Below are positions 41,572 to 56,249 of a stretch of 58,259 bases of DNA, one piece after another; within the stretch, counting starts at the first letter, position 1, and the number at the start of each line of letters is the position of its first letter. Where the stretch lies: contig JACQKZ010000012.1 in the NCBI GenBank assembly GCA_016204275.1, forward strand, positions 1 to 58,259, given 5' to 3'. Both the position numbers and the translations under genes were made by a program. The stretch is from Nanobdellati archaeon (GTDB lineage Archaea > Nanobdellota > Nanobdellia > UBA10117). The notes below the pieces were generated by a model. It made no database searches, had not been told where the DNA came from, and was given only the letters and a program-made list of their open reading frames with translations.

Positions 41572-41754
41572 ATGACAAAAGGCACGCCATCAGAAGGCAA
41601 GAAGAGTGGAAAGGTATCGCACATCAGATGTAGGAGATGCGGCTACCCTGCGTACCACAGGCAGGCCAGGCGCTGCGCGAAGTGCGGCTTTCCGGATGCA
41701 AAGATAAGGAAGTACGCATGGCAGAGCAAGAGATTAGGCAAAAGACTTTTTTAG
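41572..41754 (+). CDS. rpl37e: 50S ribosomal protein L37e
   Basis: MTKGTPSEGKK..HIRCRRCG..RCAKCGF zinc ribbon. 60 aa. Confidence 0.9.
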   Translation: MTKGTPSEGKKSGKVSHIRCRRCGYPAYHRQARRCAKCGFPDAKIRKYAWQSKRLGKRLF

Positions 41755-41895
41755 ATGCTTGTTAACTATTGCGTTCGGCAAAGCCGAATGCAATTAAAGC
41801 GCCAGCCGATTCCTTCAAAAAGGAGGTCTCGCAAACCAAAGTTTGCGAAATCGCGGCTGTGGTAGAGCAAGAGATTAGGAAAGAGGCTGTTTTAA
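41719..41895 (+). repeat. direct, in-frame duplication of the last 12 codons of rpl37e (copies 41719-41754 and 41860-41895)
   Basis: 30 of 36 nt are identical. Five of the six differences fall at third codon positions, and four of those are synonymous sense-codon changes (the fifth is the stop, TAG/TAA). There is a 16-nt identical core, AGAGCAAGAGATTAGG. The offset is exactly 141 nt. Confidence 0.85.
41723..41863 (+). mobile_element. putative miniature (gene-less) integrative element inserted in the rpl37e 3' end
   Basis: One 141-nt repeat unit. The spacer carries a 12-bp-stem hairpin (41768-41794) and an 8-bp-stem hairpin, TCGCAAAC-CAAA-GTTTGCGA. The first hairpin recurs inside the tRNA-Ile intron. 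Confidence 0.35.
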
Positions 41896-52055: not shown

Positions 52056-53579
52056 TTACACCTTTGCCCCTCTTAGCCAACTAATATCTTGGCTAAACAG
52101 CTGCCTGATATCTTTTATACTTTCGCGAATCATGAAAAGCCTGTCGACGCCGATGCCCCAAGCAAGCACGGGAACTTTTACGCCGAGCGGCAGTGTAACC
52201 TCGGGGCGGAAGATGCCAGCGCCTAAAGCTTCAACCCACTTGTTAAGCGCAGGGCTCCAGATGTCAACTTCGATGGAAGGCTCAGTATACGGAAAATAGT
52301 GCGGACGGAATCTCACTTTGTCCGAACCGGTAATTTTCTTCGCGAACTCTGCAAGCAGGCCAAGCAGTTTTCTCAAGCTGGCATTTTCATCCAGAACAAT
52401 ACCCTCTGTCTGGTTGAACTCCACGAGATGCGTGGCGTCAAGAACATCTGGGCGGAACACACGCGCAACCGCGAAATATGCGCCAGGAACCTTCAAATTT
52501 TTTGACATCATAGTCCTTGCTGAAAGTGCTGTCCCCTGCGTGCGCAAGATCAACCGTGCTGCTTCTTTTTCGTTAAACTGATATTGCCAGCCAGTGCTTC
52601 CGGTCCTGCCGCCATTCTCATGTGCGGTTGCAACTTCCTTCAAAAAATGTTTGTGCGCGTCAAGGCTTCCGTATTTTGGATCTCTAACAGAGTAAACATC
52701 GTGAATGCCTCTTGCGGGGTGGTCCTGCGGCATGTAGAGCGCGTCATTGTTGAAGAATGATAGTTCAACAAGCGGGCCAGTCATTTCTTCAAATCCCAGC
52801 GCGACAAGTTCGTCTTTCACTTCTTCCAAAAATCGCACATATGCCTGTTTTTTGCCGATAAATATTTCGGGGACTCTGGCTTCAACGTCAAAGCGCCTGA
52901 ATTGCTTGCTTGCCCACTCGCCGGATTTTATTATGGCAGGAGTTATTTGGCCGATCTTCTCGCCTGGCCTGACTGCATCTGCAACCCTTGCGCCTAAATC
53001 AGTAATTGTAAAAATGCGGGCAGTCCTGACATCACTAGTTGCCAGCCCGCGCTTTCTTAGCCGTTCAAATGCTTCCCTATCCTCTGGAGGCAGTTCGCTG
53101 ATAACAAAATCTTCTGCGGAATTAAATTTACTAATAAACTTTTCTTCAATGGTTTTTTTGTCTTTGTAGCTGAGGCCGGCTTCATTTAATTCTGTTTTGC
53201 CTTTTGATATTATAATTGCGCTTTTTTGCCGCCAATACCCGAGGGCAGCATTAAATTCCCTTGCATCCATAAATTTTGTTATTAACTTGTCGGCTGTCAC
53301 GCCCGCGGCAAGCGCTTCAACCAATTTTCTTTCCGGCAAGTTTTCAGTAATATAGTTTTTCCCGAGCTTTGTAAGGGCAGCAACGTTAATCTTTGTTTCT
53401 TTTATTTCGACCAAGCCCTTATTTTCCAGCCAGAGCGCAGACCTTGCCACCGCGGACTGATCCAGCTTTGTATCTGCCTGCAGTTCGGCATTGCTGGCCT
53501 GCCCGTGCCTCTTCAGGGCTTTGAGAATATGGATTTCGTTATCTTGCAGGGAGTCTGCCAGCTTAGTTAGGTTAGCCAT
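52056..53579 (-). CDS. pheS: phenylalanyl-tRNA synthetase alpha subunit (archaeal type)
   Basis: Class II motifs including FRPHYFPYTEPSIEVD and GIGVDRL. Start trimmed to MANLTKLADS. Confidence 0.9.
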   Translation of the reverse strand: MANLTKLADSLQDNEIHILKALKRHGQASNAELQADTKLDQSAVARSALWLENKGLVEIKETKINVAALTKLGKNYITENLPERKLVEALAAGVTADKLITKFMDAREFNAALGYWRQKSAIIISKGKTELNEAGLSYKDKKTIEEKFISKFNSAEDFVISELPPEDREAFERLRKRGLATSDVRTARIFTITDLGARVADAVRPGEKIGQITPAIIKSGEWASKQFRRFDVEARVPEIFIGKKQAYVRFLEEVKDELVALGFEEMTGPLVELSFFNNDALYMPQDHPARGIHDVYSVRDPKYGSLDAHKHFLKEVATAHENGGRTGSTGWQYQFNEKEAARLILRTQGTALSARTMMSKNLKVPGAYFAVARVFRPDVLDATHLVEFNQTEGIVLDENASLRKLLGLLAEFAKKITGSDKVRFRPHYFPYTEPSIEVDIWSPALNKWVEALGAGIFRPEVTLPLGVKVPVLAWGIGVDRLFMIRESIKDIRQLFSQDISWLRGAKV

Positions 53580-53632
53580 GCAGCTATTATTCCTGCCGCA
53601 TTTAAAAATTGTTTGTCCATGAAATGTCATAA

Positions 53633-54091
53633 CTAAAAGAATAATAAGTCCGCAGTCGCCGCAGACACAACGGCAGGCAATGCAATCACAACAGTTTGTT
53701 TCAGCATGAGGTCCATCGTTGCCGCTGTGTTAAAAACAAAAACGAACAAAAGCGAAGTCAGGAATGAAATTGCGTAAATTTCAACTGCCCGCAGGCTTGC
53801 CGCGTGTTCGAGTTGTATAGAAACGGCTTTTCTTCTTCGCGACAAATAAACTAGGGAAAATCCCATAATCATTGAAATTGTAAAGATTGCTAAAATATTT
53901 ACTGCATGCAGGTGTTTTGCAATTTCCCATATTTCAGATGTAACCGCAAAGAAAACTGCGCCGAATGCTGCGCCGACAAAATCCTCGAGAAGCAGGATAG
54001 ACACCCTGCCATGCATCCAGGCTAGCTCATGCCTGCCATTTCGGTGTGGCGCTGCCCGAGCTCTAAGTTTAAGTGAAAACGCCTTGACCAT
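53633..54091 (-). CDS. integral membrane protein, hypothetical
   Basis: Four hydrophobic segments in a 152-aa ORF. Start uncertain. Confidence 0.55.
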   Translation of the reverse strand: MVKAFSLKLRARAAPHRNGRHELAWMHGRVSILLLEDFVGAAFGAVFFAVTSEIWEIAKHLHAVNILAIFTISMIMGFSLVYLSRRRKAVSIQLEHAASLRAVEIYAISFLTSLLFVFVFNTAATMDLMLKQTVVIALPAVVSAATADLLFF

Positions 54092-54129
54092 TTTAATGTA
54101 ATATATTTGCTATTTAAAAACTTAATGAG

Positions 54130-54464
54130 TGGGCCCGGGCTGAATTTCTTCGACTGTATTTATTGCATTCGGCAAAGCCGAATGCGATCCCGTCTTTCTT
54201 GGGATACAAACAAAATCCACGAGGATTTTGTTGTACGGCCGAACATTGTTCGGTCGTAAACGTTAGACCTTCTTTCCGGAAAGAAAGAAGGGCTGTCGAT
54301 TCGAACAGCCGACCTCTGCCTTACTGATTCTTCGCCCGTAAAGTTTTGTGCGATTGTAAATCGCACTATTTTTCTTTTGGGGTTTCACAGAGAACTTTTC
54401 TTTTTTTAAAAAGAAAAGGGCTGTGTTATCAGAGCAGCGCTCTACCGGGCTAAGCTACGGGCCC
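54130..54464 (-). tRNA. tRNA-Ile: tRNA-Ile (GAU) with two large introns: 105 nt in the anticodon loop and 156 nt in the T-loop
   Basis: Minus-strand fold: acceptor GGGCCCG/CGGGCCC, D arm GCTT/GAGC, anticodon arm CTGCT-CTGATA[54322-54426]A-GGCAG, T arm GGCTG-TTCGAAT[54143-54298]-CAGCC, discriminator A. The exons sum to 74 nt of 335. Confidence 0.7.
54162..54188. repeat. palindromic hairpin module shared with the rpl37e-adjacent element
   Basis: ATTGCATTCGGCAAAGCCGAATGCGAT versus ATTGCGTTCGGCAAAGCCGAATGCAAT at 41768-41794 (25 of 27 identical). It lies inside the tRNA-Ile T-loop intron. Confidence 0.8.
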
Positions 54465-54487
54465 ACGATATAAATCAAATAATTACA

Positions 54488-54498
54488 GTTTAAAAAGT
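54488..54498 (-). promoter_or_regulatory. putative TATA-like box for tRNA-Ile
   Basis: The minus strand reads ACTTTTTAAAC, centred about 29 nt upstream of tRNA position 1. Confidence 0.4.
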
Positions 54499-54500
54499 TT

Positions 54501-54869
54501 CTATTTGCCGCTCGCAACTTTGTAAATGGCTAGCAGGCTTACAATCACAACAGCAGGCGCGACAAGGACAACAAAATACTGCAGGACGTTTACTAACAGC
54601 GGGCCGGCAATAGGTATAAACTTAAAACTCTGCGAGGATATAATAAGCGCGACGCTGGCCAGCAGGAAATTATGTGTTTCCTTTGCCCGTATGTTAAGCA
54701 GGCCGATGGCTATGCCCAGAAGCGCAAGGACAGAAGCAACAAACTTTTTGTCAGGTATGACTGTGCCAAGCGCAATTGCCAGCAGGATTCCAAACAAAAA
54801 AATCCAATGTCCAATCACGTGCAGTTCGTACCCAAAAATTCCGGTTTTAGCTTTCCCTCTCGCAGCCAT
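54501..54869 (-). CDS. small integral membrane protein, hypothetical
   Basis: Four hydrophobic segments. Start trimmed to MAARGKAKTG. Confidence 0.55.
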   Translation of the reverse strand: MAARGKAKTGIFGYELHVIGHWIFLFGILLAIALGTVIPDKKFVASVLALLGIAIGLLNIRAKETHNFLLASVALIISSQSFKFIPIAGPLLVNVLQYFVVLVAPAVVIVSLLAIYKVASGK

Positions 54870-54926
54870 AATATAACTAATATGGGGCAATTTAAAACGA
54901 TTGTTCACTACTAATGTATTATGAAA

Positions 54927-54937
54927 CTTTTAAAAAC
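54927..54937 (+). promoter_or_regulatory. putative TATA-like box for tRNA-Ala(CGC)
   Basis: CTTTTAAAAAC centred 27 nt upstream of tRNA position 1. Confidence 0.4.
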
Positions 54938-54958
54938 TCAGTTTAATATTATTCGTCT

Positions 54959-55030
54959 GGGCAGGTAGTTCAGTGGTAGAACGTCACGTTCGCAACGTGA
55001 AGGCCGTGGGTTCAATCCCCACCCTGTCCA
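54959..55030 (+). tRNA. tRNA-Ala: tRNA-Ala (CGC), intron-less
   Basis: Acceptor GGGCAGG/CCTGTCC with the G3:U70 pair, D arm GTTC/GAAC, anticodon arm TCACG-TTCGCAA-CGTGA, T arm GTGGG-TTCAATC-CCCAC. Confidence 0.88.
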
Positions 55031-55414
55031 CTAACTTCCAACGCGGGCCTGCAAATCCTTTTTCAGCCCGCCAAATGTTTCTAAAAGTTGATTTCGCTGG
55101 CTTGCCAGAAATTCCTCATATGCCTCGCGTTCGCCCGGTGCTGGCGCTGGCTTGCCAGGGATGTTTTTAACAAAATTTTTATAGTAAGCGTCTAACGCCG
55201 CATTAAACGTAGCAGCTGCTTTGTAAGCAATCTGCGCGGCATAAGCTGCGTCACCTAGGGCCGGCACTTTTTCAGTAGCAACTATTGCCTGCCATGCGTT
55301 TGTGTTTAATGCCTGGCCAACATTAATTAAATTAATATTCGTAGTTACTTCGTCCAATAGAGATTTAGCTATGACGTGGTCGCCGTTTCTGCGTAAAAAT
55401 CCAAGTGCAGACAT
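55031..55414 (-). CDS. hypothetical protein (Ala-rich, helical)
   Basis: ORF trimmed to MSALGFLRRN (128 aa), which avoids overlap with the MBL-fold gene. Its stop abuts tRNA-Ala. Confidence 0.45.
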   Translation of the reverse strand: MSALGFLRRNGDHVIAKSLLDEVTTNINLINVGQALNTNAWQAIVATEKVPALGDAAYAAQIAYKAAATFNAALDAYYKNFVKNIPGKPAPAPGEREAYEEFLASQRNQLLETFGGLKKDLQARVGS

Positions 55415-55451
55415 AGCAAACCATAAAAACCCAAAGAATTTAAAACTTTCT

Positions 55452-56249
55452 ATGGATCGGCTAGTATTTTTGGGCACCGGCGGCGGTAGAATAGTAGTTG
55501 CAAACCAGTATGTTGGCACCGGCGGATTTATTATACAAACAGAAGGCTATCAGATTTGGGTGGACCCAGGCGTAGGCGCAATCGTGCGGGCGAAACAATT
55601 CGGCGTTAGCGCTGCTAGGACAGATATTATTTACGTCACTCATCAGCATATAGATCACTGTAACGATGCTAATGCAGTAGTTGATGCAATGACACTCGGC
55701 GGCATAAAACAGCGTGGCACGATAATAAGCACACCTACTCTGATAAACGGCTCAGATAAGGATCAGCCCTGGCTCAACACAGCATTCAAGGCATATTTGA
55801 AGGATTCGTTTGCAATTAAACCAGGAGACAAAATAAAAATAGATAAATTAAATTTTGTAGCAACGCCGGCCAGGCATGACATAGAGTACTGTAATGGCCT
55901 GCGGCTTGAGACGCCAAAATTTACGCTGGGTTATACTTCTGACACCGCTTATTTTCCCGAGCTGGCAGAAGCCTACAAAGGCTGCAGCATCCTGATACTC
56001 GATGTCCTGAAGCCAGGCAACGAAGCGTGGAAGACGCATTTTAATTCTGAGGATGCAGCAAAATTAATCGCCGAAGTTAAGCCGGAGCTGGCCATCCTCA
56101 CTCACTTCGGCGCGAAAATGCTGCGGGCAAACCCAATCTACGAAGCCAGAAACATACAAAAGAAAACCGGCATCCGCACCCTGGCAGCGCAGGACGGCAT
56201 GCGCATAGATTTGAGAAGCCTGGCCAGCCAGACGAAGCTAGAAAGTTAA
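55452..56249 (+). CDS. metallo-beta-lactamase-fold hydrolase
   Basis: MDRLVFLGTGGG start and HQHIDH (HxHxDH) motif. 265 aa from the internal Met. Confidence 0.8.
   Translation: MDRLVFLGTGGGRIVVANQYVGTGGFIIQTEGYQIWVDPGVGAIVRAKQFGVSAARTDIIYVTHQHIDHCNDANAVVDAMTLGGIKQRGTIISTPTLINGSDKDQPWLNTAFKAYLKDSFAIKPGDKIKIDKLNFVATPARHDIEYCNGLRLETPKFTLGYTSDTAYFPELAEAYKGCSILILDVLKPGNEAWKTHFNSEDAAKLIAEVKPELAILTHFGAKMLRANPIYEARNIQKKTGIRTLAAQDGMRIDLRSLASQTKLES

Follow-up and report, generated by a model that had tools for sequence, protein, structure and literature searches.

A probable working tRNA-Ile(GAU) gene with two large introns, one of them in the T-loop, in a Woesearchaeota-like DPANN archaeon

The gene and its spliced product

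The subject of this article is a transfer RNA gene that is mostly intron. It lies in a 58,259-nucleotide stretch of DNA from a Nanobdellati archaeon (contig JACQKZ010000012.1 of assembly GCA_016204275.1), which we call the window, and it encodes tRNA-Ile(GAU) on the minus strand, running from 54464 to 54130. Only 74 of its 335 nucleotides (nt) are exon. The assembly under study, G000 in what follows, amounts to 705 kb in 30 contigs and is 68% complete; the window is its contig 26. We are fairly confident that this is a working gene, probably the sole copy, of a Woesearchaeota-like DPANN archaeon, and that its two introns, whose junctions resemble bulge-helix-bulge (BHB) motifs, are removed by the endonuclease EndA and the ligase RtcB. 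The parts of the locus, all on the minus strand, are as follows.

54427-54464, minus strand: exon 1, 38 nt; 5' strand of the acceptor stem, D-arm, 5' strand of the anticodon stem and the loop as far as A37, with the anticodon GAT
54322-54426, minus strand: intron 1, 105 nt, at the canonical site 37/38
54300-54321, minus strand: exon 2, 22 nt; A38, 3' strand of the anticodon stem, variable loop, 5' strand of the T-stem and T-loop nucleotides 54-59
54144-54299, minus strand: intron 2, 156 nt, at the T-loop site 59/60
54130-54143, minus strand: exon 3, 14 nt; T60, 3' strand of the T-stem, 3' strand of the acceptor stem and the discriminator A73
54487-54500, minus strand: candidate BRE/TATA (B recognition element and TATA box) promoter, an A/T-rich block about 23-36 nt upstream of tRNA position 1
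54116-54120, minus strand: run of five Ts, 10 nt past A73

Joining the three exons gives a 74-nt molecule that ARAGORN calls as tRNA-Ile(gat), a perfect cloverleaf with four perfect arms. It has one G.U pair in the D stem and one in the anticodon stem, and U8, G18G19, U33, A37, T54-T55-C56 and A58 are all present. CCA is not encoded after A73. An earlier note, made from the letters of the window, had proposed just this gene with its 105-nt and 156-nt introns, and its coordinates and lengths proved exact. The unspliced gene is called by neither ARAGORN nor Rfam.

The A/T-rich upstream block is 100% identical between G000 and a relative, G002, against 82% for the spacer around it, and is likely to be an archaeal BRE/TATA promoter element. 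Oligo-T serves as a termination signal in archaea, and the T5 run downstream, which is kept in G002, is likely to be the transcription stop. Another T5 run, followed by A7, sits inside the tRNA gene itself, in the first hairpin of intron 1 (54395-54418); read-through there may depend on the hairpin, or may itself be partly inefficient. Three small open reading frames (ORFs) overlie the introns (54107-54259, 54163-54327 and 54160-54366). We rejected them as genes because a 4-nt indel in G002 shifts the frame of both ORFs that span the first hairpin of intron 2. An uninterrupted tRNA-Ala(CGC) gene lies 500 nt from tRNA-Ile(GAU).

The same gene in relatives

A canonical, uninterrupted tRNA-Ile(GAU) elsewhere, which the earlier note named as part of the case against its proposal, was not found in the assembly. 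Nor was a second 5' half of the gene found anywhere in what is a 68%-complete assembly. The gene that comes closest to it, tRNA-Ile(UAU) on contig C5, is likewise split at 37/38 and 59/60. The same note had suggested a comparison with relatives. Orthologous tRNA-Ile(GAU) genes were recovered from 15 relatives, and their introns are given here by length in nt, in the order D-loop / 37-38 / 59-60.

G000: 0 / 105 / 156
G002: 0 / 207 / 152
G007: 0 / ~173 / 33
G001: ~83 / ~106 / 46
G014: 0 / 99 / 29
G009: 0 / 103 / 45
G008: 0 / 0 / 161
G016: 0 / 81 / 0
G013: 0 / 30 / 0
G006: 0 / 34 / 0
G005: 0 / 13 / 0
G010: ~42 / 36 / 0
G012, G003 and G049: 0 / 0 / 0 each

An orthologue may thus have anything from none to three introns, and its exons are intact throughout; exon 1 is kept across the 15 relatives. 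The two strands of the T-stem lie on either side of the 59/60 intron. Across introns of 29-161 nt we see four different complementary pairings: GGCTG/CAGCC, GACTG/CAGTC, GACGG/CCGTC and CGCAG/CTGCG. Because the exons are conserved and the T-stem covaries across the intron, we read the gene as encoding a functional, spliced tRNA and not as a pseudogene.

The opposite reading is that repeat insertions broke a tRNA gene here, leaving a pseudogene, and that the functional tRNA-Ile(GAU) resides in the unassembled third of the genome. A genome 68% complete gives this some room, standard finders do not call the gene, and there are repeat modules within the introns. We nevertheless think it highly improbable. 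The exons are perfect, the junction geometry is conserved and most tRNA genes of G000 are interrupted in the same way. Exon changes across genera are compensatory, yet each genome of the clade has an interrupted copy and no other match to exon 1.

One relative deserves a remark of its own. In G001 the tRNA-Ile(GAU) gene (L021, G001:C29:4500-6000), with its three introns, has been turned round in place with respect to the genes on either side (compare window 53000-55500).

Splice sites and splicing enzymes

The site 59/60 is a structural twin of 37/38: in both arms a 5-bp stem carries a loop of 7 nt, and the site follows the loop's sixth nucleotide. The two introns end alike as well. In each, the last six nucleotides would comprise a 4-nt strand pairing with the first four nucleotides of the loop, then two bulged nucleotides. 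The arm's own 5-bp stem, the 4-bp helix and two 3-nt bulges would then set both cuts behind the sixth loop nucleotide, which gives 37/38 in one arm and 59/60 in the other.

The 3' tail of intron 1 is TCAG+TA (54322-54327). TCAG pairs with C32-A35, and TA together with A38 makes a 3-nt bulge beside the 5-bp anticodon stem; the other bulge is U36, A37 and the first intron nucleotide. In the fold we see the 5-bp anticodon stem, the helix with the loop and a bulge of 3 nt, cut behind the second of them (TA|A); this 3' bulge and the helix with C32-A35 match the canonical motif. T(C/T)AG plus two nucleotides before A38 ends all 12 of 12 introns at 37/38, that of G000 included, over lengths of 13-207 nt.

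Intron 2 ends in AGAA+AT. AGAA pairs with T54-G57 (TTCG/AGAA, three pairs and a G.A), the bulges are AA|T (A58, A59 and the first intron nucleotide) and AT|T (AT and T60), and CGAC/GTCG serves as closing helix. We class the motif as a relaxed BHB. Relatives build the same helix from other letters: it is perfect in G008 (TTCA/TGAA), and TGGA in G001 and TGAG in G007 give four pairs with wobbles. All seven of the seven Ile(GAU) introns at 59/60, G000 included, have a terminal 4-mer with 3-4 pairs to nucleotides 54-57, plus two nucleotides before T60. Since T and C recur at the boundaries of intron 2 its junction is ambiguous, and cuts at 59/60, 60/61 or 61/62 give the same product; we place it at 59/60 because only this register yields symmetric BHB cuts. 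Across the tRNA genes of G000, 13 of 14 introns at 59/60 make at least three of the four tail-loop pairs, for which the chance rate is 0.14-0.21 (P ~1e-8).

Both enzymes are encoded. EndA is a protein of 234 aa (L025:1084-1785, G000:C29; PF01974, 95.7 bits at C29:51436-51696), and RtcB matches PF01139 with 562.6 bits at C22:17804-19114. The EndA is a single alpha-type unit, with 3iey_A and 1a79_A as its best PDB matches; it is closest to the Nanoarchaeum equitans alpha subunit and to Methanocaldococcus jannaschii EndA. Its gene is 89-97% identical to genes of metagenome-assembled genomes from groundwater labelled Woesearchaeota, Nanoarchaeota or Nanobdellati. At its N terminus is a lysine- and glutamate-rich extension of about 55 residues. 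A second gene with an EndA domain was not found in the 68%-complete assembly. The alignments are gapped exactly where the N. equitans (3iey_A) and ARMAN-2 (4fz2_A) enzymes carry extra residues, and the length there is that of M. jannaschii 1a79. We take those extra residues to correspond to the L3 loop of PMC5829648.

The pathway we propose is short. A precursor of about 335 nt would be transcribed and matured through the protein splicing pathway, with EndA cutting the two BHB motifs and RtcB ligating the exons. Several points weigh against this account of the gene. The completeness of 68% leaves room for another copy of the gene or a further EndA subunit. On its 5' side intron 1 has a bulge of 2-3 nt and then a local hairpin, without the classical closing helix. 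The central helix of intron 2 has three Watson-Crick pairs and a G.A in both G000 and G002, and RNAfold favours a register with a GAA bulge. The junctions, at which the earlier note had suggested predicting BHB motifs, are both BHB-like in geometry. The EndA lacks the insertion proposed to give broad specificity to the N. equitans and ARMAN-2 enzymes (PMC5829648), though with a near-canonical BHB at 59/60 such specificity may perhaps be unnecessary. Finally, the link of intron 2 to the intron family described in the next section is statistically weak by itself.

One observation on RtcB stands apart from this gene. The match in G011 (L078, G011:C90:2953-4131) lies within an open frame of 1013 aa, twice the usual length, which suggests an intein or a fusion.

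tRNA introns across the genome and a structured family

Allowed introns, ARAGORN calls six tRNA genes in the 705 kb of G000, and Rfam finds six above cut-off. We also ran a crude scan that required a T-loop motif and complementary strands in both the T-stem and the acceptor. It turned up about 20 plausible tRNA genes, 14 of them with an insert of 11-156 nt exactly at 59/60. T-loop introns are the norm in this genome. The earlier note had thought a large intron in the T-loop unusual for its position, a view that did not survive this count; Ile(GAU) is merely the longest gene, with the largest T-loop insert, among the 20 or so.

One structured family of tRNA introns has a layout of its own. A short lead whose last letters are CAGCC is followed by a hairpin of a pyrimidine and a purine strand, a linker rich in GC, a purine box, a variable hairpin and a tail. 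Intron 1 has its recognizable parts in place.

54395-54418, minus strand: pyrimidine/purine hairpin of intron 1
54369-54382, minus strand: purine box of intron 1
54348-54366, minus strand: variable hairpin of intron 1

Against a family profile built from introns of other tRNA genes and other genomes, with this gene left out, intron 1 scores 49.9 bits genome-wide (nhmmer, E = 9.3e-14, model positions 7-96). At least 12 further sites in G000 match the family, and a 36-nt segment of intron 1 shares 97% identity with the intron of tRNA-Val(CAC) on contig C19. Its predicted fold is more stable than that of shuffles (z = -4.4). By sequence, then, intron 1 is clearly a member of a structured and apparently mobile family. 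In both introns the purine box is the mirror of the hairpin's purine strand; given the (GAAA)n periodicity, mirror and direct repeat are indistinguishable.

Members of the family differ between orthologous genes. The tRNA-Ile(UAU) gene of G000 (C5:15050-15260, L067:551-761) is split at 37/38 and, by a 105-nt family intron, at 59/60; at the corresponding locus in G002 the similarity ends exactly where the T-loop intron starts. The first 60 nt of that intron have 97-98% identical copies at two other loci of G002. In the tRNA-Val(CAC) intron (L022, G000:C19:1045-1266, compared with L065, G002:C11) the 5' half is near-identical, and the variable hairpin and tail have been swapped for unrelated sequence. 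The tRNA cluster at 41.9-42.6 kb of the window is not syntenic in G002, where it has scattered module matches only.

The make-up of intron 2

Intron 2 is the larger of the two. Its predicted fold has an energy of -63.9 kcal/mol, compared with -33.5 for shuffles (z = -7.8; none of 200 shuffles equals it), and it contains the following parts.

54268-54291, minus strand: hairpin A, a pyrimidine strand paired to a purine strand; it is the family's hairpin 1, with the preceding CAGCC as its base
54235-54257, minus strand: hairpin B, a palindrome, half of a 52-nt insert
54206-54234, minus strand: hairpin C, a palindrome, the other half of the insert
54187-54205, minus strand: purine box ATCCCAAGAAAGACGGGAT, collinear with the family box, with weak profile matches; identical in G002
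54165-54185, minus strand: hairpin D, in the slot of the family's variable hairpin

All four hairpins reported in the earlier note are real, and three of them are perfect as claimed; read as RNA, the CCGAAC hairpin contains a single A.C mismatch, the counterpart of a G.T on the plus strand. The note had also seen that the intron starts with CAGCC, which is so, and had taken it as a repeat of the 3' strand of the T-stem. We rejected CAGCC as a T-stem mimic because it is kept where the T-stem differs, in G002 (GACTG/CAGTC) and G008 (CGCAG/CTGCG), and because it opens intron 1 and other family introns too. It forms the base of the family's first hairpin.

Intron 2 shows the family's order of parts. 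In the genome-wide search with the family profile only its 5' module matched, and weakly (8.6 bits, E = 0.58); a targeted search gives collinear matches for both the 5' hairpin and the purine box, with E of 1e-4 to 1e-5. The homologue in G008 scores 14 bits over model positions 8-84. When we used intron 2 as a query against 39 genomes order-wide, full-length copies came back from G000 and G002 only, and the 5' part from G008. A metagenome scan with a 19-nt junction pattern (T-loop plus intron start) returned five matches, all of them chance hits in unrelated DNA.

For the make-up of intron 2 the G008 intron is the key comparison. Its first 43 nt are shared with intron 2 (86%), and it then goes directly to the purine box; the 52-nt insert of two abutting palindromes (54206-54257), present in G000 and G002, is absent at that exact point. 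Other palindromes follow the variable hairpin in G008. A 'TA' target-site duplication around the hairpin insert was considered and dropped: the palindromes begin with AC, end with GT and abut, so that no duplication is needed. Most likely, intron 2 is a family scaffold that was retargeted to the T-loop via its 3' tail and then enlarged to 156 nt by nested insertion of palindromic modules known between genes.

Such modules are plentiful. Related palindrome arrays of two to four units lie between genes in G011, G014 and G001, and intron 1 of both G002 and G007 contains a related two-hairpin unit, which is also present between genes of G000, for instance at C28:25487-25545. Hairpin D has a near-copy in window 41767-41791 (24 of 25 nt identical), and in G002 its core is present at no fewer than seven sites, five of them within a longer repeat. 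That repeat, about 100-120 nt long with at least five copies in G002 (L037-L041), contains the hairpin D core ATTCGGC..GCCGAAT, and the copy in the window (41700-41800) adjoins rpl37e. G000 as a whole has 57 perfect hairpins with a stem of at least 9 bp, where a shuffled genome has 13. Of the 57, 35 fall in the 12% of G000 outside long ORFs, and four are in the tRNA-Ile(GAU) gene. Pairs of hairpins, mostly outside ORFs, were seen in G000 at these places:

C28:25487-25545, two-hairpin pair
C1:7673-7741, two-hairpin pair
C1:13761-13814, two-hairpin pair
C2:839-890, two-hairpin pair
C21:6256-6301, two-hairpin pair

The members of a pair are perfect 9-11-bp hairpins 5-25 nt apart, and one of them is often of the AGAAAAAT..ATTTTTCT type. 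The pairs are of the same kind as the two-hairpin unit nested in the tRNA introns of G002 and G007.

We also looked for known RNAs. Rfam at E up to 10 gave no snoRNA or small RNA family in 53800-55200 and no group I or II intron match; lengths of 105 and 156 nt are too small for self-splicing introns of these groups. No signal of a box C/D or H/ACA RNA or of a ribozyme turned up. Neither RUGAUGA nor CUGA occurs within intron 2.

Constraint or transfer

The most puzzling feature of intron 2 is how little it has changed. Identities between G000 and G002 are as follows.

Flanking genes: 74-79%
Spacers: 71-82%
Exons: 96%
Intron 1: 63%, plus 102 gap columns
Intron 2: 97.4% (148/152), plus one 4-nt indel

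At the mismatch rate of the flanks, the identity of intron 2 has P ~2e-12. Its four substitutions and the indel all fall at unpaired positions or a stem tip, and no stem of the predicted fold is broken. In the loop of hairpin C (54209-54232) TCGT in G000 is replaced by ACGA in G002 (L002, G002:C21), its exact reverse complement, with the stem unchanged. A tree of RtcB puts G000, G002 and G007 in a tight clade (100/100), within a seven-genome clade that has the 59/60 intron (93/93).

Two explanations offer themselves. The first, akin to the earlier suggestion of a function after excision, is that selection preserves intron 2 as a structured RNA, probably made circular through ligation by RtcB, with a role of its own such as protein binding or as a stable RNA. 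An identity of 97.4% against about 77% for the flanks, the unbroken stems and the fold z of -7.8 speak for it. We still consider it unlikely. At the same site G007, as close to G000 by RtcB as G002 is, has an intron of 33 nt and G001, of the same genus, one of 46 nt, both unrelated to intron 2; the tRNA does not need intron 2, because these two do with other introns at 59/60. No known RNA family matches, there are just two full-length copies, and the metagenome scan added none. Family modules 97-98% identical at non-orthologous loci of G000 and G002 point to mobility and not to a function tied to this locus.

The second explanation is that the near-identity reflects not constraint but recent movement of mobile intron or hairpin modules between co-occurring lineages, by lateral transfer or gene conversion. 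The distribution on the RtcB tree is patchy in just this way, with a large family-type intron in G000, G002 and the distant G008 and short unrelated ones in G007, G001, G009 and G014. The tRNA-Ile(UAU) and tRNA-Val orthologues differ in their introns, with those 97-98% identical modules at other G002 loci, and the flipped loop of hairpin C looks like a sign of palindrome dynamics at the level of DNA. Yet the adjoining exons differ between G000 and G002: one T-stem pair shows compensatory changes, 10 nt away on the upstream side and 5 nt away on the downstream side, which leaves room only for a very short conversion tract. Neither genome holds another full-length copy that could have been the donor. 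Y1 transposase of the IS200/IS605 type (PF01797) and TnpB (PF07282) were not found in G000, G002 or G001, which are incomplete genomes, in a search that did not extend to other families of transposase or to homing endonucleases. We regard recent transfer as a tentative possibility. It ranks above a function for the RNA because relatives have unrelated introns at the site and the modules turn up at non-orthologous loci.

Among the 17 family genomes, a region of G008 (C74:160-1648) has the sole match to PF01797 and the sole one to PF07282 above the curated cut-off.

It is also conceivable, though we would not bet on it, that in these very compact DPANN genomes tRNA introns are safe harbours for a family of palindromic modules without a transposase, which enlarge the introns step by step, and that purifying selection has come to act on at least one product, the 156-nt intron, as a structured RNA, probably a circle, with a function of its own.

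Comparison with known systems

The closest precedent comes from Thermoproteales, where multiple-intron tRNA genes and transposed intron clusters have been described (Sugahara 2008 and Fujishima 2010, as summarised in PMC4090602, PMC4033280 and PMC8450103). There as here, BHB or BHB-like introns may interrupt a gene as many as three times, at non-canonical sites as well as the canonical one; similar introns shared by different tRNA genes imply transposition, and standard finders miss genes. The differences are several. Our lineage is DPANN (Woesearchaeota-like) and not Crenarchaeota, and its EndA is a single alpha-type unit and not (alpha-beta)2 with the crenarchaeal loop. Protein-spliced tRNA introns are typically below 100 nt (PMC4033280), whereas here they reach 105-207 nt. 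Systematic use of 59/60 and nested palindromic modules also set this genome apart from Thermoproteales.

Nearer in lineage is the survey by Kaneta et al. 2018 (PMC5829648), which covered one Woesearchaeota genome and described increased tRNA disruption in DPANN together with an alpha4-type EndA with an L3 loop. The superphylum and the single alpha-type EndA are common to both studies. Their paper has counts where we describe intron anatomy, and our EndA has the lysine-rich N-terminal extension instead of the inserted loop.

A eukaryotic nuclear tRNA-Ile gene also has several protein-spliced introns, one of them in the T-arm, and the G001 orthologue shows the same three-arm pattern. The eukaryotic introns are short, and no intron family or nested repeats are reported for them. 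The tRNA-Trp gene of Haloferax volcanii has a 105-nt intron carrying a box C/D guide RNA. It is likewise a long BHB intron in an archaeal tRNA gene, and a life after excision is the tRNA-Trp intron's; neither of our introns has C/D boxes or an Rfam match. The hairpin modules themselves recall repetitive extragenic palindromes and bacterial interspersed mosaic elements (REP/BIME) or miniature inverted-repeat transposable elements (MITEs), being short palindromes in head-to-tail arrays, mostly outside genes and at many loci. Unlike these, they are archaeal and nested in tRNA introns, and G000, G002 and G001 have no Y1 transposase of the kind associated with REP (RAYT-like). Their distribution is our whole case that the hairpin modules would be mobile.

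What the locus means

Multiple BHB introns, non-canonical sites, intron transposition and tRNA disruption in DPANN are already known (PMC4090602, PMC4033280, PMC8450103, PMC5829648). What this locus adds is the systematic use of 59/60, modular nested growth, a series of presence and absence, and the exon-like conservation of intron 2. Because ARAGORN and Rfam each find six tRNA genes in 705 kb, tRNA counts for DPANN genomes of this sort are badly underestimated.

How archaeal tRNA genes gain introns is unsettled, and the locus provides a natural series in close relatives: one gene that has 0, 1, 2 or 3 introns, the 59/60 site with unrelated introns of 29-161 nt, and one intron with and without its hairpin inserts. 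To move an intron out of the anticodon loop into the T-loop, a change of the 4-nt tail alone can, on this evidence, suffice. That intron 2 is as conserved as the exons gives a concrete hint either of a function for the intron or of its recent transfer.

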